Of a stretch of 44,575 nt of DNA, positions 1-35,661 are shown one piece after another. This DNA comes from a virus. Lineage: Duplodnaviria; Heunggongvirae; Uroviricota; Caudoviricetes. The stretch lies in IMG/VR virus record IMGVR_UViG_2537561980_000012; one strand, written 5' to 3'. The notes below the pieces were generated by a model. That model did no database searches. It was given only the letters and a program-made list of their open reading frames with translations, and was not told the DNA's origin. The position numbers and the translations under genes were made by a program. Numbering within the stretch: the stretch's first letter is position 1; each line of letters begins with the position of its first letter.

Positions 1-774
1 TTACAACTTAAAGAGTTTCGCTTGCCCTGGATTAACAGCTTCGACGTAGTTTTTGACCCCTATTCTGTGCGGCTCATAATTGCTTGAATAGAAATCAATC
101 AGGAAGTCACTCATTTTCTGAGATGTGACTTTCATAACTCCCTTACTCAAAGTTAAATTAAACACGCTAATCTTTGACGATGGTGCCTGAGTTTTACTCA
201 TGTTGGCTTGATAACCAGATTTGCGCATTGCCACTAGTGCTTCGTCGTAAGCCGCTTGTAATTGGGCCAAATCGTTTGACGAGATGATCACATCATCCAT
301 AAACACACTTAGCTTGAGATCATGATGTTTGTTCAATCGGCGTAGTAAGCTACCAAAATAACTTTTATCTAAGCAGAGGGTTGCAAGTATTGGAGATTGA
401 ACAAAACCAAAAGGGAGGACATGCTTATGTGGACTATGGGACAAGTTTCTTACAGTTGAAAATGTTGAGATTTCCCGCGCTTGAGAATAGGTGAAGTAGC
501 TCTTTAGATCACGGGTGATACGACTACGGCTCGTTGACTGAAAAAATTGTTTAATATCAACAACGGCAAAAAAATCACTTTTTAAGTGTAATCTGGCAGC
601 TTTAAGATGCCCACCAGTTCTTAGATGGTAAAAATAGAGTGGCGGAATCCACTTGTTTCTGACAGCCTGAAGTATCTTCCCTCCGACTTTACGTGCCTCA
701 ACGCTTGGGACATAAACCCAAACCCCGGGCTTAATCTCAAATTTATCTTCCCACCTTTGAACTTCTATTGTCAT
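1..774 (-). CDS. Reverse transcriptase, retron-like, compact (257 aa); complete ORF with stop at 1-3
   Basis: RT motifs visible in translation: motif 1/2 'KPGVWVYVPSVEARKV..KILQAV', motif A 'VVDIKQFFQS' (cf. retron Ec86 'NIDLEDFFPS'), motif B' 'LPFGFVQSPILATLCLD' (cf. Ec86 'LPQGAPSSPKLANLICSKLD'), motif C 'FMDD' (plus 292-303). Low GC. Only about 14 aa precede motif 1, so the N-terminus is unusually short. Confidence 0.8.
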   Translation of the reverse strand: MTIEVQRWEDKFEIKPGVWVYVPSVEARKVGGKILQAVRNKWIPPLYFYHLRTGGHLKAARLHLKSDFFAVVDIKQFFQSTSRSRITRDLKSYFTYSQAREISTFSTVRNLSHSPHKHVLPFGFVQSPILATLCLDKSYFGSLLRRLNKHHDLKLSVFMDDVIISSNDLAQLQAAYDEALVAMRKSGYQANMSKTQAPSSKISVFNLTLSKGVMKVTSQKMSDFLIDFYSSNYEPHRIGVKNYVEAVNPGQAKLFKL

Positions 775-916
775 GAGTTAAATTGCTGTAGTTGAAGGCC
801 ATGTTAAGAACGGCGTAAACCGCACCAACTAAGCCAACAAACGCGGTTGCGCATTTGAGCATAGCGGTGATCAGTTCAACACGCGCCTTAACTAAGCCAA
901 GTTCGTTTGTATCCAT
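743..916 (-). CDS. Possible small hydrophobic protein (57 aa from second ATG) overlapping RT start; may be spurious within a structured non-coding leader
   Basis: ORF in six-frame track; second ATG has GGAGGAA 6 nt upstream; hydrophobic stretch 'AFVGLVGAVYAVLNMAF'; overlaps RT start by 32 nt. No homology recognised. Confidence 0.25.
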   Translation of the reverse strand: MDTNELGLVKARVELITAMLKCATAFVGLVGAVYAVLNMAFNYSNLTHDNRSSKVGR

Positions 917-1089
917 AACTTGTTCCTCCATAGATACCTGACGTCTCTTAGCGCAAGCGCATGGCCCTAACTAAATAAAAAATAACAACCAGTTAGCCCA
1001 GAAAGCTTAACAAGTCGGCGTCCGATTACATGGCAATCAGGTAATCGGTCCGCAGTCGCAAAGCGACAAACTACATATCTACGGAGTGG

Positions 1090-1099
1090 GGATAAATCC
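1090..1099. repeat. IS186 target-site duplication, left copy (ggataaatcc)
   Basis: Identical 10-mer at 2438-2447 directly flanking the IS; reconstructed target ggggataaatcccc fits the known IS186 G-run/N6/C-run preference. Confidence 0.85.
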
Positions 1100-2437
1100 C
1101 ATAAGCGCTAACTTAAGGGTTGAACCATCTGAAGAATGCGACGCCTCGGTGCCTCGTTAAGACGATGCCTCGCGTTCTTCAATTGCGTTTTGTAGGCTGT
1201 CAGGGATACTGTCCCACGAATGGCCACCTGTAAGCTCCAGATGACCATTTTTGTTATTCTCCACAACGAGTTAGTTCTTCTTTTCGGATCCGGCACTTCT
1301 GGGGGGGAAATCCAGCGATGGCTGGATTATGTCGTCAATTAAAAATGCGGCGAGTAGATTAGCAAATATCCACGCTTTCGCGAGTTCAGGTTCCTTTGCA
1401 CGCAAAGCATCCAGGTGCAGCAAACTTTTGAGCCGCTTAAAAGCCAGTTCAATTTGCCATCGCAGACGGTAACAATCAGCCACTTGCTCTGCTGAATATT
1501 CATCTTCCGGTAATGATGTTAGCAATAGCACATGGCCCGCTGCTTCCAGCGTTTCCGCCTGAACTACTCGTCCTTTTCGACGATTCTCGCTGAGCAGTCG
1601 GGTTTTACTGATTAATGCTTTTTCGGGAGGAAGTGATACGGCAATGAGACGTGCCGGAAAGGGAGCTCCGGCTTTTTTATTACCTGAATTGCCTATCATT
1701 ACAGTGGTTTCACCGTTCTTACCGCAATCCAGCCCGCGCAGAAAACCCATCATGTCAAAGCGCATTCCTTCTGCAGTTAACCAGCGCAATCCTCGCCAGT
1801 GAACCCGGACGATATAATCAGCTTCTCCAAAAGCAAGTGAGCGGATACATTCGGGACGCGAACCGAATCCCGGTCAGCAATGCGTATCTCGTCTGCCGTT
1901 TGCGCAAATCGGTCCAGCCGTTCAGCGTCTCTGCTGTCGGTTAGCTCAAAATCAGTGAACTGACAGGTATGAGGATCATATCCCATATGTAGTCGCCATT
2001 CAGCGCTGCCGCCCCCGGGCGCACTGATTGCTGTTCCATCGACAAGACGCAATCTCTTTCCGCTTGTACAACCCGTAACTGCGGCGCGTACAGCAAGTGT
2101 TTGTGCGGCAAGTATGCCAAACCAGTCGGCGGCATTCCGCAGCCGCTTCAGGAGAGCCACGTCAGATAATGTTGCAACGTCATGGAGCTGAGCCCATGCA
2201 GTGACTTCACGTAATGACATCCCCCCGGGGCCGTAAGCCAGCCCCAGACGTAGCAGAGTTGCAGCATCACGAATTTCGCGGCGGCGGGTTAGAGCCCCGG
2301 CATTACGTGCCGAAGTATCCAGTTCTTCGGGCTTACCAATATGGGCCAGAATTGCTGACCAGTTATCGTGAGAGTAATTCATCGGCACGTTAAATCATAT
2401 CAGGCGTAATACCACAACCCTTAAGTTAGCGCTTATG
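1100..2437 (-). mobile_element. IS186 insertion sequence (IS4 family), 1338 bp
   Basis: 23-bp terminal inverted repeats cataagcgctaacttaagggttg (1100-1122) and its reverse complement (2415-2437); length equals canonical IS186; internal ORFs match IS186 transposase. Confidence 0.95.
1271..2382 (-). pseudogene. insL: IS186 transposase, split by a 1-nt deletion in a G/C run (plus 1869-1871)
   Basis: Two ORFs (203 aa, 172 aa) together reproduce the IS186 transposase as I recall it ('MNYSHDNWSAILAHIGKPEEL...', '...RWLTAEGMRFDMMGFLRGL...'); adding one G in 'gaccgggattcgg' restores 'ADRGFGSRPE...HWRGLRWLTAEG'. Confidence 0.9.
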
Positions 2438-20552: not shown

Positions 20553-22319
20553 ATGAACACCACACTGACACCCGCAGATCTCGATCCCCGTCGGCAGGCC
20601 ATGCTGCTGTACTTTCAGGGATACCGCGTAGCCCGCATTGCTGAAATGCTGGGCGAGAAAGTTGCAACCGTTCACAGCTGGAAAAAACGCGACAAGTGGG
20701 GTGACTATGGGCCGCTGGATCAGATGCAGCTCACCACCGCCGCACGCTACTGCCAGCTCATTATGAAGGAGCACAAAGAAGGGAAAGATTTCAAAGAGAT
20801 TGACCTGCTGGCGCGCCAGTCGGAGCGCCACGCGCGGATCGGCAAGTTTAACAATGGCGGCAACGAATCCGACTTAAACCCTAACGTCGCCAACCGCAAC
20901 AAAGGCCCGCGCCGTCAGCCGGAAAAGAATGTTTTCACCGATGAGCAGATTGAGAAGCTGGAAGAAATCTTCCATTCCTCCATGTTCAACTACCAGCGCC
21001 ACTGGTGGGAAGCCGGAAAAACCAACCGCATCCGCAACCTGCTGAAGTCACGCCAGATCGGCGCGACCTTTTACTTTGCCCGTGAAGCCCTGATTGACGC
21101 TCTGCTTACCGGACGTAACCAGATTTTTCTTTCCGCCAGCAAGGCACAGGCTCACGTCTTTAAGCAGTACATCATAGACTTCGCCAAAGAAGTCGAGGTG
21201 GAGCTGAAAGGCGATCCGATGGTGCTTCCTAACGGAGCCACGCTTTACTTCCTCGGCACCAATGCCCGCACGGCCCAGAGTTACCACGGCAACCTGTATC
21301 TGGATGAATATTTCTGGATACCGAAATTCCAGGAGCTGCGCAAAGTGGCTTCTGGTATGGCTATTCACAAAAAATGGCGACAAACCTATTTTTCCACGCC
21401 ATCCAGCCTGACACACAGTGCTTATCCGTTCTGGTCCGGTGCGCTGTTCAACCGTGGGCGCAATAAAGCCGATAAGGTGGACATCGACCTGTCCCACAGC
21501 AATCTGGCCCCCGGCCTGCTGTGCGCAGACGGGCAATACCGCCAGATAGTCACCGTGGAAGATGCAGTGCGCGGCGGATGTAACCTTTTCGACCTCGATC
21601 AGTTGCGCATGGAGTACAGCCCGGACGAATACCAGAACCTGCTGATGTGCGAGTTTGTGGACGATCTCGCGTCCGTGTTCCCGCTCAGCGAGCTGCAGGC
21701 GTGCATGGTGGACAGTTGGGAAGTCTGGACCGACTTTCATGCACTGGCCCTGCGCCCGTTTGGCTGGCGCGAAGTGTGGATCGGTTATGACCCGGCAAAA
21801 GGTACGCAAAACGGCGACAGCGCCGGGTGCGTGGTGGTGGCACCGCCAGCCGTGCCGGGCGGTAAGTTCCGCATTCTTGAGCGTCACCAGTGGCGCGGGA
21901 TGGACTTCCGCGCCCAGGCTAACGCCATCAAAAAACTGACTGAACAGTACAACGTGACATACATCGGTATCGACTCAACCGGCGTCGGTCACGGGGTTTA
22001 CGAGAACGTGAAAGCGTTTTTTCCTGCCGTCCGGGAGTTTGTCTACAACCCCAACGTTAAAAACGCCCTGGTACTCAAGGCCTACGACATTATTAGCCAC
22101 CGCCGCCTGGAGTTTGACGCCGGGCACACCGACATAGCGCAGTCCTTTATGGCAATCCGTCGCGCCACCACTGCCAGCGGCAACCGCCCGACCTATGAGG
22201 CCAGCCGCAGCGAAGAAGCCAGCCACGCCGATCTGGCCTGGGCAACAATGCACGCACTGTTTAACGAACCGCTGCAGGGCGAGTCCGCCAATACCAGCAA
22301 TATTGTGGAGATTTTTTGA
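20553..22319 (+). CDS. P: Terminase large (ATPase) subunit P
   Basis: 588 aa gpP-like; divergent from O as in P2. Confidence 0.9.
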   Translation: MNTTLTPADLDPRRQAMLLYFQGYRVARIAEMLGEKVATVHSWKKRDKWGDYGPLDQMQLTTAARYCQLIMKEHKEGKDFKEIDLLARQSERHARIGKFNNGGNESDLNPNVANRNKGPRRQPEKNVFTDEQIEKLEEIFHSSMFNYQRHWWEAGKTNRIRNLLKSRQIGATFYFAREALIDALLTGRNQIFLSASKAQAHVFKQYIIDFAKEVEVELKGDPMVLPNGATLYFLGTNARTAQSYHGNLYLDEYFWIPKFQELRKVASGMAIHKKWRQTYFSTPSSLTHSAYPFWSGALFNRGRNKADKVDIDLSHSNLAPGLLCADGQYRQIVTVEDAVRGGCNLFDLDQLRMEYSPDEYQNLLMCEFVDDLASVFPLSELQACMVDSWEVWTDFHALALRPFGWREVWIGYDPAKGTQNGDSAGCVVVAPPAVPGGKFRILERHQWRGMDFRAQANAIKKLTEQYNVTYIGIDSTGVGHGVYENVKAFFPAVREFVYNPNVKNALVLKAYDIISHRRLEFDAGHTDIAQSFMAIRRATTASGNRPTYEASRSEEASHADLAWATMHALFNEPLQGESANTSNIVEIF

Positions 22320-23344
22320 TGGGAAAGAGTAAGAAAAACCGCGCTGCGGCGACGAATCAGCTCAAGCATAAAAGCCAAACTTCAGCCGAAGCATTCAGCT
22401 TTGGCGATCCCGTTCCTGTTCTGGACCGCCGTGAACTGCTGGACTATGTGGAATGCGTACAGATGGACCGCTGGTATGAGCCGCCCGTCAGCTTTGACGG
22501 ACTGGCACGAACCTTCCGCGCCGCCGTGCATCACAGCTCACCAATTGCGGTGAAATGCAACATTCTGACCAGTACCTACATCCCTCACCCGCTGCTCAGC
22601 CAGCAGGCTTTTTCACGTTTTGTGCAGGACTATCTGGTATTTGGTAACGCCTACCTGGAGAAACGCACGAACCGCTTCGGTGAAGTTATCGCCCTTGAGC
22701 CTGCTCTGGCAAAATACACCCGACGCGGGTTAGACCTGGATACCTACTGGTTTGTGCAATACGGTATGACAACCCAGCCGTATCAGTTCACGAAAGGCAG
22801 CATTTTTCATCTGATGGAACCGGACATCAACCAGGAGATCTACGGCCTGCCAGGTTATCTTTCTGCCATTCCATCAGCCCTGCTCAACGAGTCCGCCACG
22901 CTGTTCCGCCGCAAGTATTACATTAACGGCAGTCATGCAGGCTTCATCATGTACATGACCGATGCCGCGCAGAACCAGGAGGATGTGAACAACCTCCGCA
23001 ATGCGATGAAAAGCGCCAAAGGCCCTGGCAACTTCCGCAACCTGTTTATGTACTCGCCTAACGGCAAAAAGGACGGGCTTCAGATCATCCCGTTGTCAGA
23101 AGTCGCGGCGAAGGATGAGTTTCTGAATATCAAAAATGTCAGCCGCGATGACATGATGGCAGCGCATCGTGTGCCGCCGCAAATGATGGGGATTATGCCG
23201 AATAATGTTGGGGGGTTTGGGGATGTGGAGAAGGCAAGCCGTGTGTTTGTTCGTAACGAACTAATACCATTGCAAAAAAGATTGGATGAGTTAAATAATT
23301 GGTTAGACGATAAAATAATAACATTTAACACATACAATTTTTAA
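22316..23344 (+). CDS. Q: Portal protein Q (last ~28 codons are AT-rich, cargo-like)
   Basis: 342 aa gpQ-like; ATGA overlap with P; abrupt composition change from about 23250. Confidence 0.9.
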   Translation: MMGKSKKNRAAATNQLKHKSQTSAEAFSFGDPVPVLDRRELLDYVECVQMDRWYEPPVSFDGLARTFRAAVHHSSPIAVKCNILTSTYIPHPLLSQQAFSRFVQDYLVFGNAYLEKRTNRFGEVIALEPALAKYTRRGLDLDTYWFVQYGMTTQPYQFTKGSIFHLMEPDINQEIYGLPGYLSAIPSALLNESATLFRRKYYINGSHAGFIMYMTDAAQNQEDVNNLRNAMKSAKGPGNFRNLFMYSPNGKKDGLQIIPLSEVAAKDEFLNIKNVSRDDMMAAHRVPPQMMGIMPNNVGGFGDVEKASRVFVRNELIPLQKRLDELNNWLDDKIITFNTYNF

Positions 23345-23374: not shown

Positions 23375-23896
23375 TCAGTTAATCAGTTTATTTAATGACT
23401 TAGACCACTTCTGTCCCAAATCATCAATATCAAAATCACCATCTCGCTGCTGCCATTTAAAAACTAAGGCTATAAGTTCACTCTTGAGGATTCTTTTATA
23501 ATAATCCTTAGATTTTAATTGCTCAAGTATATGTTCACCAACCTCAGCAAGCTTTCTATGATTTAATTCTGACAGATCTCGATGCAAATGGTTAACTGAT
23601 TTATACAAAGTATTTCCTTCAGTACGAGAAATATCAATACCTTTATCTTCAAACCATTGTGAATCAAGCCAAACCAAATCTATCGTAGCTGGCTCTGACA
23701 TCGTGGTGGCAAGGGCAACAATAATTTTCTCTACCGATTCATCTTGAAAATCGATAGAGTCAGAAACCCAAACTGACAAGGTGTTATTAGAGGTCCTTGT
23801 GCAACCTGTTATCGCGTCTGCGGATATATTGTCAGGTGCTCTACCTTTATTACATTCCCATTTACTATGGGATATTTTACGCAATAAATATGTCAT
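23375..23896 (-). CDS. Hypothetical protein, third gene of AT-rich cargo operon (173 aa)
   Basis: ATG overlaps the upstream stop as TAATG; low GC; no recognisable motif. Confidence 0.7.
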   Translation of the reverse strand: MTYLLRKISHSKWECNKGRAPDNISADAITGCTRTSNNTLSVWVSDSIDFQDESVEKIIVALATTMSEPATIDLVWLDSQWFEDKGIDISRTEGNTLYKSVNHLHRDLSELNHRKLAEVGEHILEQLKSKDYYKRILKSELIALVFKWQQRDGDFDIDDLGQKWSKSLNKLIN

Positions 23897-24543
23897 TATA
23901 GACTTCTCAAATATCCTATAACTGCTTCTTTATATTCTTCCACCCAATCAGCATCAAATTTCCTCATTCTTTCAAGGACTGGAATAAATGATTTTTCCCC
24001 CCAAGACTCAACTGCACGGATCGCTGCCTCAAATATAAGTTCATTCTCAAGAGAACAAACTCCCATAATCATAGCGTCAGCTTTATTACCTAACCATTCA
24101 TATTCAATAGTCGATGCAAAATTAATGAAGTTCTTTACATGTTGATCATTCATTCTGTACAATTGTACCCATGTCCTTTGAAAGGACTCTTGGAATAAAT
24201 CCTGATTTTTATCATACAAGAACTCCATGTAAATCTGTGTCTTGCTTATCTCGCCTTCAATGTAATCTTCTGAACATGTTAACTCAATTAGTCTAGAGGT
24301 ACATTTTGAAACCTGAATTTCAAAGTTCTGCTTAGTTGACGAACCTTGATTTATTGACTCAGTCTCTAATTGAAAGCCACCATTTGTTTTGCTATGTGAC
24401 AGCTCATTTCTTTTAATATCAGCGTAAATGATATTGTTACCATCATAATAATCAGAAAATGCACCTATTGAACTTACCCCATTTTTAAACTTAGGTAAGC
24501 CAAAAGGCTTTTCATCACTTATTATAAAACTATTCTTTACCAT
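23896..24543 (-). CDS. Hypothetical protein, second gene of AT-rich cargo operon (215 aa)
   Basis: Starts 9 nt after the upstream stop with 'aggtga' RBS; no recognisable motif. Confidence 0.7.
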   Translation of the reverse strand: MVKNSFIISDEKPFGLPKFKNGVSSIGAFSDYYDGNNIIYADIKRNELSHSKTNGGFQLETESINQGSSTKQNFEIQVSKCTSRLIELTCSEDYIEGEISKTQIYMEFLYDKNQDLFQESFQRTWVQLYRMNDQHVKNFINFASTIEYEWLGNKADAMIMGVCSLENELIFEAAIRAVESWGEKSFIPVLERMRKFDADWVEEYKEAVIGYLRSL

Positions 24544-24552
24544 AGCATCACC

Positions 24553-25248
24553 TTACAGAGAAGTGTAGCGTTGTAAATTATCAATAGTTTTAAGATTGTC
24601 CTGACACAATAACTCTAGCACGCGGATATATTCATCCCAACCAAACCGCATATATCCATTTTGAGGAAGAGTATTAGTATCAGTTTCAAATAATACGCAA
24701 TCACTTGGCATACCATTATTCAAAAATGGAGCTGAAATTTCAGCGCGTCTAATTGTACTAATACTATTAATTTCTTCCTGATACTCTTCAATATTTTTCC
24801 TTACAGCTATACGATTGTCCCACTCAAATGGATTAACACCTTTATAGGTAAACAAAGCATTGTAAAGCGAAAAGTAAACAGATTCATCCCCTTGATAGAT
24901 ACGTGAATTCAGAACAGCTATCCTATTTCCTTTTTTCATCGGAAATACGTTTTGTAGTTCCCTAGATATAGATAGAACCATTTCTGAAAACGCTTGAGGT
25001 TCCCCCCCCAAACCATTAAAAATGATTCCATGGCTAGGAAACTCGACTCTTACTGTTTGATTGGTATCTACCATGATAAGAATTTGCTTTTTCTCACCAG
25101 TGATGGCATTAATCTCCTGACCAAAAGTAGGTACAAATCCAAATTTTCCAATCTTATCAAGCATAGATCCAATAGTTAGTGTATTTGGAACTATATCATT
25201 ATTATTTGTGAAAAAATTAATCTGATGCGTCTGTTCAATCAATTTCAT
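24553..25248 (-). CDS. Hypothetical protein, first gene of AT-rich cargo operon (231 aa)
   Basis: ATG start with AGGAG 6 nt upstream; no recognisable motif. Confidence 0.7.
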   Translation of the reverse strand: MKLIEQTHQINFFTNNNDIVPNTLTIGSMLDKIGKFGFVPTFGQEINAITGEKKQILIMVDTNQTVRVEFPSHGIIFNGLGGEPQAFSEMVLSISRELQNVFPMKKGNRIAVLNSRIYQGDESVYFSLYNALFTYKGVNPFEWDNRIAVRKNIEEYQEEINSISTIRRAEISAPFLNNGMPSDCVLFETDTNTLPQNGYMRFGWDEYIRVLELLCQDNLKTIDNLQRYTSL

Positions 25249-26204: not shown

Positions 26205-28618
26205 TTAATACAGGTTCCGCCACTGATCATCTTCCTGCAAACGCTGGCTCCGATAGAAGATACGCAGGCCTGCTCCTGACGGAATACTGCCTCCGCGAAG
26301 GAGTAAATCGACCTCTTTCTCGCTGCCATCAAATCCTCTGGACTTCAGCTCATACACGAGCTGCAGTCGCTGATGGTCTGTAATTCGCTGTTTGTAGTCT
26401 TTACGCCGTTTCGGTTTCACCAGGCATAACCTTGCTGCCAGTTCCCGGCGCTCTTTTTTGCTCATACTGTGCAGGTAATCGTGCAACTCCTTGTCATCCA
26501 TGCTGGTAATGTCCGTTCTGGGGTCCCCATCAGCTGATTTATCTTTCTCCTGTTGGTTCAAATTTTCAGCAAGGGGACAGTTATTGCCACGAGTCCAAGG
26601 GGCGCAAGCGCCCTGGTCGGCTGCCGCCTCCTGAACGTCAACGGCTTTACGAACCATTTTCCACTTCACTGCATGAGTGCAGATCTTGCCCTCTGCAATG
26701 GGTGACCAGATGCCATAAATACGAATACCGTGATCGCCATAGGCGGTCGGCTCTTCGTTGATTTCATAAGCGGTTCTGATGAGGTGATATTTACGGGGAA
26801 CCAGTACGCCGCCCTGCTTCATGATGTAGGTGGCAAAGCAACCAGCATCAGCTGCAGCCAGAATGGCATCAAGGCGCTGGTTATCCAGTACCGGCGCACC
26901 TGCTTTTTTGTCACCCTGTTGCCTTGCCGCCTGACCAGCCAGCAATCGCAGTTCACGGTAAGCCTGACGCCCCGGAATGCCAAAGAAGCGGAATTGCTGA
27001 ACACGATGCAGAGACGCCCAGGCATTAACGTATTCAGCGTTATCACGCAGAGATTTACCCGTTTCCTTGCTGATCTCGCCAGCCAGACCACGCCCGTCAA
27101 TGTTCTTACTGATATATTTCGCGATGTAGCTTGTCGGCGTTCCTTTGCGCGGGTTAATCAACTCAGACTTAAAGCGCGGCCCAGTGTTATTGCCCAGCTC
27201 CTCGCGGTCTTCACGGATGGCAAACTTACGCAGTAATGCAGTGATGGCGCGGCGGCTTTTTTGCGCATAAAACACAACAGGTGCCAGTGAACTGTACCGT
27301 CATGATGCGGCTCAGCCACCCGCACGCCATACCAGCGCAATCCGGCTTTGTGCATCGCCTTACGAAATGCAGCAAACATGCCGACCAGATAGTCGCTGCT
27401 TTGTCTTACCGTCGAGTTTGTCCAGGTCGGGTTGGGTCTGCCGTTATTGAGCGTGGAATGGAAACGCGACGGACAGGTGATAGTGTAGAAAACGGCGCAG
27501 TCACCGCGCATTTCCGCGATAAGCTCCAGACCTTTAACACAGGCCATCATCTCATTGCGGCGATGCGCCGGGTTGCTGCTGCTGGCGTTTACCACATCTT
27601 CCATATCCAGCGTGTCGCCGTCTTCGTTCACCAGTTCATGAGAACGGAAAAACTCCAGCGACTTACGGCGCTGCTCACGTTTATGCATCACGGCTTCATA
27701 GCTGACATAGGGGGATGCTTTTTTGCTGACCAGGCAGACAGCACGCAACTGCTCTTCCCGCCATTCGCAACGCATCTTCCATAATTTCCGATACCACCAG
27801 TCGGCACACAACATACGCGCCAGCGAACCCGGAATGAGTTCATAGGGCACGGGTTTACGGCGGTTTCTTTTCCGACGGAGTTGCTCAAACGCAGGCGGAA
27901 TAACATCCAGACGCAGGGTTTCCGCTGCCACCTTTTCCCATGTTTTGCGGATTTCTTCTGGCTTAACGTCATCGGTGGCATACAAATCACCACAAGCGGC
28001 ATCAAGGCACATGCTCATATGCGCAGCGACAAGGGTGGACAGGCGCTTCACCTGATCCTGACTCATTTCAGGCAGGATAAGCAGGCCATCCAGCCCTTCA
28101 TGGCTTGCCATAAAGCGAAAAGAAGTGGATAGCTGACAGTCGCGGACATGCTCCAGTCGTTCCAGACATGGCTTAATCGTCTCACGCAAATAGCGGGAAT
28201 AAGCCTTTGGCCTGCCCAGGCTGCTGAAATATTCAATACGTTGCATCAGCGGCTTGCTGATATGGGAAGGCTGGGCGTTGACGTCAGCCAGAATGACCAT
28301 GTCCGGATTAAAACGCTGCTGCTCATGCGCCAGCTTTGCCCGGCTAATGAGCTTATCCTGCTCCATTTCGCGCTGGACAGGATCACGGGATTCATTAAAG
28401 AAATAACGCTCCCAGACCTGATCACTCAGTGCCTCGCGGCGCAGTTGTTCCTGCTCGTTATCGGCAGCGTACAGAGTGATCAGGTTTGAAAGTGCAGAAA
28501 CCGGCGCAACTTCCGCCGGGTCCAGATAAGGGTTAATGGCCTTTTTTGGGCTGTTCCATGAGAATGCTGCGGCGACCTCGTTAAAGCCGCTGCAGTTGTT
28601 CATATCAGCATGGCTCAT
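26205..28618 (-). CDS. A: Replication initiation protein A (rolling-circle HUH endonuclease), interrupted by a 1-nt deletion in a T6/A6 run (plus 27257-27262)
   Basis: '[17 protein letters not shown]' then, after a frame change, '[12 protein letters not shown]...[12 protein letters not shown]', colinear with P2 A; adding one A in 'cgcaaaaaagcc' restores the frame. Confidence 0.85.
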
Positions 28619-29472
28619 GCACGCACTCCGTACACGGCGGAACAATCCACGCCACGCGAAGGATCAAATCCTATCCAGCAGCGCGGCCCGGCAACAGCAA
28701 TGATTTCTGTTGCAGATTTACTCTCACCAGCTGCCACGCCGATGCTGCGTTTTGCCTTGATGTAGTGGTGAGTAAAATTGCGATACAGCGAACGGATCAG
28801 GGATGTGTCACTGTTAGAAATAATGACCGGATATCCTTCTGATGACCAATGTTCAAGAACAGATGCCAGGTGATACTGGTCATCTTCAGTGAAACCATCA
28901 GTGTGATAGCCGGAAAACGTACCGTCATAAGGCGGATCGCAATACACCACATCCCCCGCGTGCAACATCGCCAGCGTTTCATCGAAGCTGGCGCAGATAA
29001 ACGTTGCCCGCTGGGCTTTTACTGCAAATGCACGAATTTCTTTTTCAGGAAAATACGGATTTTTATAATTACCGTAGGGAATGTTGAAATGCCCGCTCTT
29101 GTTATAGCGACATAAACCACGGTAACCGTGACGATTGAGATACAGGAAATATATCGCTTTCATAAAATCAGTAATTTCAGTTGAGTAATTAAACTCCTGC
29201 CTTATGTTGTAATAATCCATCTCCCTGTTTGCGTTCTCAAATAAAACTCTGGCGCGAGATATAAACGATTCACAATCAGCGGCAACCTTTTTATAGAGGT
29301 TGATTAAATCAGGATTAATATCCGCAACCAGATAGCTGGGATAATCCGTCTCCATCATCACAGCACAGGAACCCGCGAAAGGTTCAACCAGTCGCGGGCC
29401 AGCAGGAAGATGTTTTTTCAGTTCGGACATTATGGCAGTTTTATTTCCCGCCCATTTCAGGATGGTGCTCAT
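28615..29472 (-). CDS. dam: DNA adenine methyltransferase (Dam family)
   Basis: 'LKWAGNK' and 'DPPY' motifs; ATGA-coupled to the upstream zinc-finger gene and to A. Confidence 0.85.
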
Positions 29473-29696
29473 ACAGCACCTCCGTTGTAATGTTTGCCTT
29501 TCAGCTCTGCGATTTCCTGACAGGTAATGCAAAGCTGCACACCCGGAATGGCACGGCGGCGTGCTGGCGGAATTGGCGCTTCACACTCAATGCAAAGCAC
29601 GCGGGACACGCCCGGCGTTTTGGCACGGGCAGCACGGATATGGCGTTGGCGTTCTTCTTCAACGCGCTGCTGTACGAGATCCATTGCATCAGCCAT
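29469..29696 (-). CDS. DksA/TraR-family C4 zinc-finger protein
   Basis: 75 aa with 'CIECEAPIPPARR...CITCQ' four-Cys motif. Confidence 0.75.
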   Translation of the reverse strand: MADAMDLVQQRVEEERQRHIRAARAKTPGVSRVLCIECEAPIPPARRRAIPGVQLCITCQEIAELKGKHYNGGAV

Positions 29697-31664: not shown

Positions 31665-32297
31665 ATGTTAAACATCAGAATGGGTTCCGATACGGGAGGT
31701 AAAGCAGCTATTGAGAGGCTGCTTGCGGCTTATGGATTCACAACTAAGCAGGCATTAAGTGAGCACCTGAATGTCTCAAAAAGCACTATGGCAAACAGAG
31801 TGTTACGTGACAGCTTTCCTGCTGACTGGATAATTCAGTGCGCACTAGAAACCGGTGTTTCGTTGCTTTGGTTAGCTACAGGACAGGGAAGCATGAAAGC
31901 AGGATCTGAGACTGAAAAAAGATCTCATAATGAGAACAAACAAGCAATTAAACCGTTATCTAAACTCATAACTCCATCTATTCCTAAAGGAACCTTGGAG
32001 AATGGACAACTCAGTATTGATGAAGAGATTTTCCTAGACCACAGCATATTACCTGCAAATTATGAAGAATCGATGTTCTTAGAAACCCCTACTGATTGTT
32101 ATCTCATCGATAAATCAGTTAAACAAGTCAGCAATGGATTCTGGCTTATCAATATTGATGGAATGATTATTATTGCAAAAATTATGCGGATTCCCGGCAA
32201 TAAGATTGTAGTAAATCAAGATGAAGCGTCTTTCGAGTGCTCTGCTGATGATGTGGAAGTTATTGGGCGTGCAGTCAAAGTAATAAAGAGTATCTAA
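31665..32297 (+). CDS. cI: CI repressor (186 type, HTH N-terminus plus oligomerisation domain)
   Basis: 210 aa with HTH 'TTKQALSEHLNVSKSTMANRV'; immediately followed by int in the same orientation, as in phage 186. Confidence 0.8.
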   Translation: MLNIRMGSDTGGKAAIERLLAAYGFTTKQALSEHLNVSKSTMANRVLRDSFPADWIIQCALETGVSLLWLATGQGSMKAGSETEKRSHNENKQAIKPLSKLITPSIPKGTLENGQLSIDEEIFLDHSILPANYEESMFLETPTDCYLIDKSVKQVSNGFWLINIDGMIIIAKIMRIPGNKIVVNQDEASFECSADDVEVIGRAVKVIKSI

Positions 32298-32299
32298 AC

Positions 32300-33316
32300 A
32301 TGACTGTCAGAAAACAGCCAAACGGCAAATGGTTGTGTGAGTGCTATCCCAATGGACGCAATGGCAAGCGCGTGCGTAAGCAATTTGCTACGAAAGGAGA
32401 AGCCATTGCTTTTGAAAGCTTCACAATGGAAGAAGTGAATAAAAAACCGTGGCTAGGTGAAAAGGATGATCGGCGACGCCTATCAGAATTAATTGAGCTT
32501 TGGTATTCCCTGTATGGCCAGACACTCGCAGACCCCAAGCGCCTCATGGCGAAACTTAGAATTATCTGTAATGGTCTAGGCGACCCCATCGCCTCAGAAC
32601 TGACAGCCGGTGACTTTACAAAATACCGCGAAGCACGGTTAAAAGGCGACGTTCGTAACGAAGACGGCACACTAATGTCGCCAGTAAAACCACGCACGGT
32701 GAATCTTGAGCAACGTAACCTATCATCGGTTTTCGGCACATTGAAAAAACTAGGCCACTGGTCAGCACCAAATCCTCTCGCCGGGCTGCCAACATTTAAA
32801 ATCGCTGAGGGGGAACTGGCGTTCCTGACCTCGGAAGAAATTAAACGTCTGCTAGATGCCTGCGCTGATTCTCAAAACCCCAGTCTGCTTTTGATTGCAA
32901 AAATATGCCTGGCCACCGGCGCACGCTGGAGTGAAGCCGAAAACCTGCAGGGCCATCAGTTATCTAAATACCGCATCACTTATACCAAGACGAAGGGCAA
33001 GAAAAACCGCACCGTGCCGATATCTCAAGATCTGTATGACGAACTCCCCAAGAACAGAGGGAAGCTATTCACCCCGTGCAGAAAAGCCTTTGAACGGGCA
33101 GTAAAGCGAGCTGGCATCGAGCTGCCAGAGGGCCAATGCACTCACGTGCTACGTCATACATTCGCCAGTCATTTTATGATGAATGGCGGAAACATACTGG
33201 TCCTACGCGATATTCTGGGCCATGCCGATATAAAAATGACGATGATTTACGCCCACTTTTCGCCGGATCATCTTGAAGATGCAGTTACTAAAAACCCTTT
33301 ATGCAACTTAAGATAG
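32300..33316 (+). CDS. int: Tyrosine integrase (P2/186 family)
   Basis: C-terminal catalytic region 'HVLRHTFASHF...LGHADIKMTMIYAHF'. Confidence 0.9.
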   Translation: MTVRKQPNGKWLCECYPNGRNGKRVRKQFATKGEAIAFESFTMEEVNKKPWLGEKDDRRRLSELIELWYSLYGQTLADPKRLMAKLRIICNGLGDPIASELTAGDFTKYREARLKGDVRNEDGTLMSPVKPRTVNLEQRNLSSVFGTLKKLGHWSAPNPLAGLPTFKIAEGELAFLTSEEIKRLLDACADSQNPSLLLIAKICLATGARWSEAENLQGHQLSKYRITYTKTKGKKNRTVPISQDLYDELPKNRGKLFTPCRKAFERAVKRAGIELPEGQCTHVLRHTFASHFMMNGGNILVLRDILGHADIKMTMIYAHFSPDHLEDAVTKNPLCNLR

Positions 33317-35623: not shown

Positions 35624-35661
35624 ATGTAGGAATTTCGGACGCGGGTTCAACTCCCGCCAGC
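35624..35661 (+). other. 38-nt copy of the ssrA (tmRNA) 3' end: attachment-site remnant
   Basis: 'atgtaggaatttcggacgcgggttcaactcccgccagc' matches the E. coli ssrA 3' end as I recall it but lacks the terminal 'tccacca' and all upstream ssrA sequence. Confidence 0.8.

Follow-up and report, generated by a model that had tools for sequence, protein, structure and literature searches.

Does the small reverse transcriptase (RT) gene at the left end of the viral DNA stretch IMGVR_UViG_2537561980_000012 belong to a retron, and which RNA and which effector would act together with it? The stretch (Caudoviricetes, 44,575 nucleotides; in the following, "the window" means this entire stretch) carries the gene on its minus strand, close to a copy of the insertion sequence IS186. 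The original prediction, made from the letters of the window, considered the enzyme as a retron or related defense RT with a non-coding RNA (ncRNA) directly upstream and an effector gene to the left of position 1. Our analysis identifies positions 1–1099 plus 2438–2525 as one copy of a phage-borne module composed of a promoter, a structured leader RNA, a small protein (SP) and a compact retron-like RT. Leader, SP and RT co-occur across Proteobacteria and prophages, and no other gene is consistently associated with them. Our preferred interpretation, to which we assign a probability of about 0.6, is that the module represents a variant of a type VI-like retron that lacks a helix-turn-helix (HTH) gene and in which cDNA primed by the RT would switch on synthesis of SP.

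A compact retron-like reverse transcriptase

The RT gene (1–774, minus strand) is complete, with the ATG at 772–774 and the TAA stop codon at 1–3, and does not extend beyond the window. The deduced protein of 257 aa contains the motifs quoted in the original prediction (VVDIKQFFQS, LPFGFVQSPILATL and the catalytic site FMDD) and matches the Pfam family RVT_1 with 77 bits (E=2e-21; cut-off 29.6 bits). Its start codon is not preceded by a Shine-Dalgarno (SD) sequence of its own. A word-indexed search detected 72 clusters of the RT family, and an exhaustive HMMER scan of 1.84 billion representatives yielded 158 at E≤1e-30, each standing for a cluster at 50% identity. Relaxing the threshold to E≤1e-10 and E≤1e-3 raised the number to 320 and only 519, respectively, and almost all members are 250–265 aa long. 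The 80 genomic RT loci are distributed over gamma-, beta- and alphaproteobacteria and a few other phyla, and in nearly all of them in-frame stop codons shut the reading frame within 10–30 codons upstream of the RT start. The short N-terminus noticed earlier in this copy is therefore a property of the family and not the result of a truncation.

Comparison of the family profile with the PDB returned retron RTs as the top 13 matches, and family positions 11–247 aligned with residues 60–295 of the Ec86 RT (E=2.4e-12). The similarity to Ec86, which had been called striking, is real but remote; compared to the Ec86 enzyme, the family RTs lack about 50 residues at the N-terminus and about 20 at the C-terminus. 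Among the PADLOC models, retron RT_VI was the best for 20 of 20 family members (best E=1.9e-24), closely followed by I-B, IX and II-A. The members tested scored 63–85 bits on RT_VI, near their scores on the other three models, with 63 bits quoted for the RT itself. The best NCBIfam model was that of retron St85 (49.5 bits, compared to a cut-off of 235). Retron RTs are thus the nearest relatives in three libraries (PADLOC, NCBIfam and PDB), which agrees with the assignment as a retron or related RT. The lead of RT_VI over I-B, IX and II-A is marginal, so that the scores do not establish membership in the type VI clade, which is monophyletic and corresponds to clade 3 of the retron RTs. Placed by profile scores and not by phylogeny, the RT appears to be retron-like, outside the current type models and nearest to type VI. 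A single-sequence structure prediction was unusable (pLDDT 32), and we make no structural claim.

The catalytic aspartates D73, D160 and D161 are invariant in the family. Motif C reads FMDD in the E. coli clade and YMDD in the family consensus. The NAXXH motif of retrons aligns as A59-(A/L)-x-x-H63, with H63 being invariant and A59 nearly so, and the VTG triplet aligns as V-F-N, with F205 and N206 invariant in 53 sequences. The G of VTG has been described as the most conserved residue of the triplet (Mestre et al., 2020, PMC7736814), and VTG is said to direct retron RTs to their msr. A region equivalent to RT7 is present, and the protein ends about 50 residues beyond it.

P2-like coliphages are known to carry the abortive infection (Abi) RT Abi-P2, and the generic core of our RT also matches the PADLOC model for CRISPR-associated RTs with 59 bits, which could be taken to favor another class of RT, namely a group II intron enzyme, a diversity-generating retroelement (DGR) or Abi-P2. 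We consider this hardly credible. The group II intron maturase model TIGR04416 gave 23 bits against a cut-off of 300, no intron or other Rfam family was found at the locus, and no maturase, endonuclease or C-terminal Abi domain would fit into 257 aa. A DGR or a group II element was also rejected on the basis of the locus, which measures 1.2 kb from ogr to ssrA. The motif C of the form Y/F-M-DD and the presence of the RT7 region are unlike Abi RTs, which have YRDD and lack RT7, and Abi-P2 was rejected on these grounds together with the missing C-terminal domain. RTs of the unknown group/defense-associated type (UG/DRT) were likewise rejected, as their PADLOC models scored below those of every retron type with the family members. 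The grouping with group II intron or DGR enzymes, which the original prediction had named as evidence against itself, was hence not seen.

A conserved leader RNA upstream of the small protein

The original prediction placed the ncRNA in the 325 bp between the RT start and IS186, which indeed extend from 775 to 1099, with IS186 starting at 1100. A structured and covarying RNA does lie upstream of the RT, but positions 775–916 are coding, and the leader of about 190 nt comprises about 917–1099 plus 2438–2461, with IS186 in between. All of its parts lie on the minus strand. The native promoter region (2462–2525) extends from the ogr stop codon to the inverted repeat a1 and contains a -10-like TAAATT that ends 7 nt before a1. 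The 5' end of the leader, detached by IS186 (2438–2461), consists of a1 (CCTGACGT, 2454–2461), TAGCG (2449–2453) and the 5' half of the first msr-like hairpin GGGGATTTATCCCC. The 3' half of this hairpin, the target of IS186, holds positions 1090–1099. It is followed by the anti-SD segment CTCCGTAGATA (1076–1086), which pairs with the SD strand of SP, and by a short msr-like hairpin, GTCGC-TTT-GCGAC (1055–1067; family consensus GTCACnnnGTGAC, 92.6% paired), in which the E. coli clade shows a double change from A-U to G-C. The variable region (989–1054), which is the msd-like stem-loop, folds into imperfect hairpins and includes the previously noted hairpin ccgattac-N11-gtaatcgg, located at 1022–1048. 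A conserved single-stranded motif, TGGTTGTT (984–991; family consensus TGTTGGTT), precedes the hairpin CATGCGC-TT-GCGCTAAG (947–963; family consensus CATGCGCnnnGCGCTAGG). This hairpin lies just 5' of a2, its GCGC/GCGC stem is 100% paired and its sequence is nearly invariant across gamma- and betaproteobacteria. Further towards SP lie a2 (ACGTCAGG, 937–944), the partner of a1, and the SD strand (925–936), which combines GGAGG (925–929) with the upstream bases of TATCTATGGAG (926–936) and pairs with the anti-SD segment.

Throughout the family, the order of elements in the 5' part is a1 (YCYGRC), a purine, one variable base, UAGG(C), the first hairpin, the anti-SD and the hairpin GUCACnnnGUGAC. 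The 3' part is made up of a variable region of about 50–90 nt, UGUUGGUU, CAUGCGCnnnGCGCUAGG, three bases and a2, and two to six bases then separate a2 from the SD, which is followed by the SP start codon. At a distance of 3–5 nt on the 3' side of a1, an AG embedded in UAGG or UAGC is invariant, and almost all leaders have UAGG 3 nt 5' of a2. Retrons in general prime cDNA synthesis from the 2'-OH of a conserved branching G located at the end of the a1/a2 stem. In most of 38 non-redundant loci, a -10-like hexamer, often in the extended TGn form, was detected 7–8 nt upstream of a1, and a -10 score of at least 6 was reached by 42% of the loci compared to 4.5% in the background. Based on the spacing of this box, we placed the 5' end of the leader at a1.

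RNAalifold applied to a MAFFT alignment of the 38 leaders recovered the a1/a2 helix, the GUCAC hairpin and the GCGC hairpin. The inverted repeats, for which a search had been proposed, are thus present: 98.1% of the a1/a2 cells are paired, with compensatory changes in six of the seven pairs. Over the whole structure, 84.2% of the positions are paired, compared to 30–46% when the partners were slid, and the observed covariation was reached in none of 500 shuffles. The helix between anti-SD and SD was misaligned by MAFFT and was therefore scored in each sequence separately. It has a median of 9 contiguous pairs and a score of 20.0 with the own partner versus 13.3 with partners swapped among loci, a value that none of 2000 permutations reached. 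Because the order along the RNA is a1, anti-SD, a2, SD, the a1/a2 and anti-SD:SD helices cross as a pseudoknot, and a fully nested fold containing both is impossible. Coaxial stacking of the crossing helices is possible on the uninterrupted strand formed by a2 and the SD, with the transcript starting at their junction. The E. coli leader has a minimum free energy (MFE) of -69.1 kcal/mol (z=-3.3), and a hairpin in the variable region was found in nearly all 38 leaders despite unrelated sequences, with a mean z of -1.27.

A covariance model built from the nested helices, and omitting the anti-SD helix because of the crossing, matched more than 60 genomic loci, including 14 loci beyond the seed with E between 1e-30 and 4e-9. 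Of 42 independent viral loci, 40 were matched as well, in each case directly upstream of the RT gene, and the E values overall went down to 1e-40. Leader and RT occur together in about 100 loci from three proteobacterial classes and phages. Scanning with Rfam assigned no family to the leader or the locus; the sole entry was an 11.7-bit match to RsmY on the opposite strand (E=8). In retron ncRNAs as defined by Mestre et al. (2020, PMC7736814), the a1/a2 repeats flank between one and three short msr hairpins as well as an msd hairpin that is long and variable. The leader likewise has two short conserved hairpins and a variable hairpin between a1 and a2, and with these terminal inverted repeats its predicted layout matches that of a retron msr-msd RNA.

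In alphaproteobacterial loci (L062–L082), the a1-GAUAGC element, a2 (GCCGG) and the overall layout are kept, about 230 nt upstream of SP, and the CAUGCGC hairpin together with UGUUGGUU is replaced by CUCUCAGUUGACG(A/G)CUCC...GGAGYUGC. The covariance model recognizes these leaders weakly (E about 1e-4).

The small protein and its probable coupling to the RT

SP (743–916, minus strand) is a putative membrane-acting effector of 57 aa with a basic N-terminus, a hydrophobic helix and the motif LNMAFNY. Its ATG lies 8 nt downstream of GGAGG, and its 3' end overlaps the start of the RT gene by 32 nt. The hydrophobic open reading frame (ORF) with a good ribosome-binding site (RBS) had been recognized before, and RefSeq annotates the same 57-aa ORF in other genomes. 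We rejected a 62-aa version starting at 929–931, because its ATG lies inside the SD and both the homologs and RefSeq use the second ATG. Essentially all of about 130 related loci contain an SP ORF of 40–65 aa, mostly ending 4–40 nt inside the RT gene. The SP core, counted from the Met to the invariant NY, has a median length of 37.5 residues. The N-terminus carries a mean charge of +2.5 over 12 residues, and the hydrophobic helix has a median Kyte-Doolittle index of 1.84 over 19 residues, with 70% of the cores reaching at least 1.6. The core ends with (L)NMAFNY in gamma- and betaproteobacteria and with SKVVNYG in alphaproteobacteria, and no match to SP was found in Pfam, PADLOC or NCBIfam.

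A strong SD precedes 86% of the SP starts, compared to 9% of the RT starts and a background of 7%, indicating that translation of the RT is probably coupled to translation of SP. Lacking an SD and overlapping the SP stop codon, the RT would depend on the same masked SD as SP. In the E. coli leader (911–936, minus strand), an alternative partner for the SD-strand sequence UAUCUAUGG is the region of the start codon, UUAUGGAUA. The local hairpin formed in this way is the one picked by the MFE fold and possibly represents a second layer of start-site masking.

The masked SD raises the question whether the leader acts as a cis-acting translational operator of a small toxin only, like the 5' regions of hok and tisB, and is never reverse-transcribed. 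The RT would then perform untemplated or protein-primed synthesis, use another RNA or be a mere leader-binding regulator. SD masking is the best-supported functional feature of the leader, and SP, with its core of about 38 aa, basic N-terminus and single hydrophobic helix, resembles a type I toxin. The RT lacks the VTG motif that is said to direct retron RTs to the msr, and type VI retrons yielded no detectable msDNA (multicopy single-stranded DNA) in standard tests. However, SD masking requires neither covarying a1/a2 repeats that enclose two conserved hairpins and a long variable one, nor an invariant UAG beside a1, nor a near-invariant hairpin beside a2. The co-occurrence of RNA and RT in about 100 loci from three proteobacterial classes and phages and the invariance of the catalytic residues D73, D160 and D161 further argue against an operator function only, and we regard this explanation as unlikely.

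Alternatively, SP could be a small subunit or cofactor that supplies the missing N-terminal and thumb parts of the RT, with a host factor or the cDNA serving as effector. By translational coupling SP and RT would be made together, the invariant NY and the well-conserved (L)NMAFNY indicate more constraint than is usual for pure membrane peptides, and the RT is shorter than the Ec86 enzyme at both ends. What speaks against such a role is that toxic peptides typically combine a hydrophobic sequence and a basic N-terminus with a masked SD, as SP does, and that SP is the toxic effector in the nearest characterized systems. We therefore judge a cofactor function to be quite improbable.

SP is the only conserved partner gene of the RT. 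Clustering of the flanking ORFs of 80 loci revealed no recurrent partner but only antisense shadows and synteny among close species. Similarly, in a Pfam scan of 92 flanking ORFs, every family was limited to three loci at most, and an HTH did not recur. An HTH gene could not be accommodated between SP and RT either, as the two genes overlap. The original prediction expected the effector downstream of the RT, as in an ordinary retron with its msr-msd at 775–1099 and an effector beyond the left edge of the window, and the general retron likeness of the RT and the upstream RNA would fit such an arrangement. In all genomes examined, however, the RT stop codon is followed by 108 bp and then by the terminator and the gene of the transfer-messenger RNA (ssrA, tmRNA), leaving no space for an effector. 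Moreover, none of the genes downstream of the RT is recurrent in the 80 loci, the RT is the last gene in many viral contigs and 775–916 is coding. An effector in this position was therefore rejected, and the corresponding reading of the locus is very improbable.

Proposed mechanism and points that weigh against it

In the preferred model, an HTH-less type VI-like retron, SP would be a membrane-acting toxin that is held untranslated, as suggested by the analogy to type VI retrons. The RT would bind the two conserved short hairpins of the leader, prime from the G in the invariant UAG beside a1 and copy the leader from just 5' of a2 towards the anti-SD, so that the a2-proximal hairpin would be the first stretch to be copied. 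Phage infection may let the cDNA accumulate until its 3' end runs into the anti-SD and stays hybridized, similar to classical retrons, in which msDNA and msr are paired at their 3' ends. The liberated SD would permit synthesis of SP and of more RT, and SP could then damage the membrane, whereby the infected cell is killed and the infection aborted. Our observations concern the anatomy of the module, whereas we infer priming, cDNA formation, toxicity and defense by analogy.

Several points weigh against the preferred model. Production of msDNA, toxicity of SP and phage defense are all proposed from analogy to other systems. Type VI retrons neutralize SP with an HTH protein, and none is present here. 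Due to the translational coupling, some SP would accompany any RT that is made, which does not fit easily with a toxin that is kept completely silent. For an msd, the variable hairpin is short, and it is only modestly more stable than shuffled sequence, as the mean z given above indicates. The a1/a2 and anti-SD helices cross and may either coexist or alternate. In the RT, VTG is replaced by VFN and the N of NAXXH by A, and the scores on retron models (63 bits on RT_VI, 49.5 bits on St85) lie far below member level. In another study, all 1928 reference retron RTs reached at least 114 bits on a general retron hidden Markov model, which differs from the models used here.

A more far-reaching version of the preferred model would regard the family as a self-contained two-gene retron lineage and as the smallest known retron-type immune module, consisting of an RT of about 255 aa, a toxin with a core of about 40 aa and an RNA of about 190 nt, without a protein antitoxin. 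In this version, a pseudoknotted anti-SD clamp would be opened by cDNA extending into the anti-SD, resulting in a feed-forward burst of toxin and RT. We put this version forward tentatively, as a possible but doubtful extension.

Relation to known systems

The order of elements in type VI retrons is ncRNA, SP, HTH and RT, with SP being the toxic effector and its RBS buried in the ncRNA (bioRxiv 10.1101/2025.10.22.683967; bioRxiv 10.64898/2026.04.27.721009). In Retron-Vpa2, phage-induced cDNA is required to derepress SP translation, and in Retron-Sen3 the HTH protein neutralizes SP. Like the type VI retrons Vpa2, Eco12 and Sen3, the family described here consists of a promoter, a structured ncRNA, a small hydrophobic protein and the RT in this order, and both are found on mobile elements. 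The SP ORF separates the ncRNA from the RT gene, the basal pairing of the ncRNA sequesters the RBS of SP, and the RT is compact (the PADLOC RT_VI model has 279 positions). In contrast to type VI, the family lacks a Cro/C1-type HTH gene, none having been recurrent by clustering or in the Pfam scan of 92 flanking ORFs, and every locus shows a direct overlap of SP and RT. The leader of about 190 nt is shorter than the RNA of about 280 nt upstream of SP in Sen3 or the hybrid RNA of about 470 nt in Vpa2. In Vpa2, a2 follows the SP coding sequence, whereas a2 of the family precedes the SD. The hybrid RNA of Vpa2 and the IR1-IR2 pairing of Sen3 bracket the SP coding sequence, whereas the pairing examined here lies upstream of the SP start. 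Compared by description, (L)NMAFNY is not reported for the four type VI SP clusters.

About 78% of the catalogued type VI entries contain a Cro/C1-type HTH gene that overlaps the RT or lies upstream of it, and about 22% have none. The family may therefore already be part of type VI, or adjoin it, without having been noticed. In the recent retron literature, we did not find a two-gene, HTH-less system of this kind.

Ec86 (Retron-Eco1; PDB 7v9u, 7v9x and 8qbk) has the a1/a2 repeats, short hairpins of the msr type, a long variable hairpin and the UAG after a1 in common with the family, and it is itself located in a P2-like prophage remnant. It differs in that the family RT is about 65 residues shorter and has VFN in place of VTG and A(A/L)XXH in place of NAXXH. 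The effector of Ec86 is encoded by a separate gene of the nucleoside deoxyribosyltransferase type, whereas the putative effector of the family is a peptide of about 40–60 aa encoded between ncRNA and RT, and SD masking is built into the ncRNA of the family. Type I toxins such as hok, tisB, ldr and shoB resemble SP as peptides of 30–60 aa with a basic end and a single hydrophobic helix, and in these systems intramolecular pairing of the SD, including long-range 5'-3' interactions, also blocks translation. Unlike in type I systems, the peptide gene of the family overlaps an RT gene in one operon and the leader is of the retron type; no antisense RNA gene was evident at the cassette, although no search for one was made. 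Abi-P2 (Odegrip et al., 2006) is likewise accessory RT cargo of E. coli P2-like prophages, with a presumed function in phage exclusion. It belongs to a different RT class with a Y(R/V)DD motif, no RT7 and a long C-terminal domain of variable sequence. A review places Abi-P2 in "a highly variable region" of P2 prophages.

Type VI is the single retron type that departs from the logic of msDNA as antitoxin, and the two dissected systems disagree, with translational control in Vpa2 and post-translational control via the HTH protein in Sen3. A natural lineage without HTH, with toxin and RT on one RNA-masked RBS, offers a minimal test bed that could show whether reverse transcription alone gates a toxin. 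The module of about 1.2 kb is widespread (158 clusters), yet it is missed by current classifiers of defense systems and retrons, and the names in RefSeq are only "reverse transcriptase domain-containing protein" and "hypothetical protein". The very small RT and the short template RNA could additionally be of interest for retron-based DNA writing.

The IS186 insertion in this copy

In the window, IS186 (1338 bp, 1100–2437, minus strand) is inserted in the first leader hairpin GGGGATTTATCCCC, as determined by alignment with an intact allele (L001). The 10-bp target duplication GGATAAATCC occupies 1090–1099, within the 3' half of the hairpin, and 2438–2447. The hairpin is a site of the G-rich/AT/C-rich kind that is preferred by IS186. 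Following the insertion, the promoter, a1 and the UAG context are located at 2449–2500 and everything from the anti-SD to the RT at or below 1099, and the covariance score drops from 90.7 bits in the intact allele to 57.5 bits. From this arrangement, we infer that the a1/a2 priming helix no longer forms locally, while the anti-SD:SD clamp should be intact. With promoter and a1 cut off from the rest of the leader, the copy in the window is probably disabled and most likely represents a silenced, non-functional allele. The IS186 junction is common to only 3 of 5426 complete E. coli genomes. The transposase is split into ORFs of 172 and 203 aa (1271–2388, minus strand), with a 1-nt indel near 1872 relative to an intact copy in strain FDN-24.

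The cassette as cargo of a P2/186-like prophage

The module lies on the minus strand at the end of a prophage, and the order in the window is RT, SP and leader, IS186, the P2 late activator gene ogr (2526–2744) and then the tail genes, beginning with D and U. DNA of the cassette is present in 33 of the 5426 complete E. coli genomes, about 28–30 of which lack IS186. In two annotated examples of the IS-free allele, ogr is followed by 260 bp, the 57-aa hypothetical protein, the RT, 108 bp and ssrA with its terminator. An intact cassette is present, for example, in E. coli CV839-06 (NZ_CP025753.1, about 3217100–3218460). A P2/186-like prophage that is integrated in ssrA thus carries the cassette as its last cargo; the original prediction had pointed to retron Ec67 on a 186-like prophage as a parallel. 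The RT is likewise the terminal gene in 13 genomes of Klebsiella P2-like phages (99.6% identity), and in many viral contigs of IMG/VR no further gene follows it before the contig ends. The junction of ogr and the attachment site (att) thus constitutes a cargo site of P2/186-like prophages that is distinct from the cos-adjacent hotspot described in the P2 hotspot preprint.

The far attachment site is represented by 38 bp at 35624–35661 that repeat the 3' end of ssrA (ATGTAGGAATTTCGGACGCGGGTTCAACTCCCGCCAGC). The ssrA element therefore begins outside the window, to the left of position 1, and reaches about 35.66 kb; it constitutes an entire 186/P2-like prophage, including a CI-type repressor (31665–32297) and an integrase (32300–33316). 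Strain FDN-24 contains only a remnant of about 5 kb at the same ssrA site. Between the integrase and the far att repeat, a gene of the dCTP-deaminase type with presumed anti-phage function (33696–35438, minus strand) encodes a protein of 580 aa that matches PADLOC dCTPase (4e-145) and Pfam dCMP_cyt_deam_1. With this gene next to the far att and the RT cassette at the other end, the prophage has defense cargo at both ends. The cos-adjacent P2 hotspot, a site where defense systems are known to cluster, corresponds to 23375–25248 (minus strand), between the portal gene Q (22316–23344) and the replication gene A. It contains three successive ORFs of 173, 215 and 231 aa, which had no match in Pfam or PADLOC and are candidates for unknown cargo. 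Gene A (26205–28645, minus strand) is split into two overlapping ORFs of 356 and 495 aa; this split and that of the IS186 transposase reflect either decay of prophage and insertion sequence or sequencing errors. In the early region, positions 28615–29532 (minus strand) encode a Dam-like orphan N6-adenine methyltransferase (Pfam MethyltransfD12, 9e-77; PADLOC orphan methyltransferase, 2e-110).

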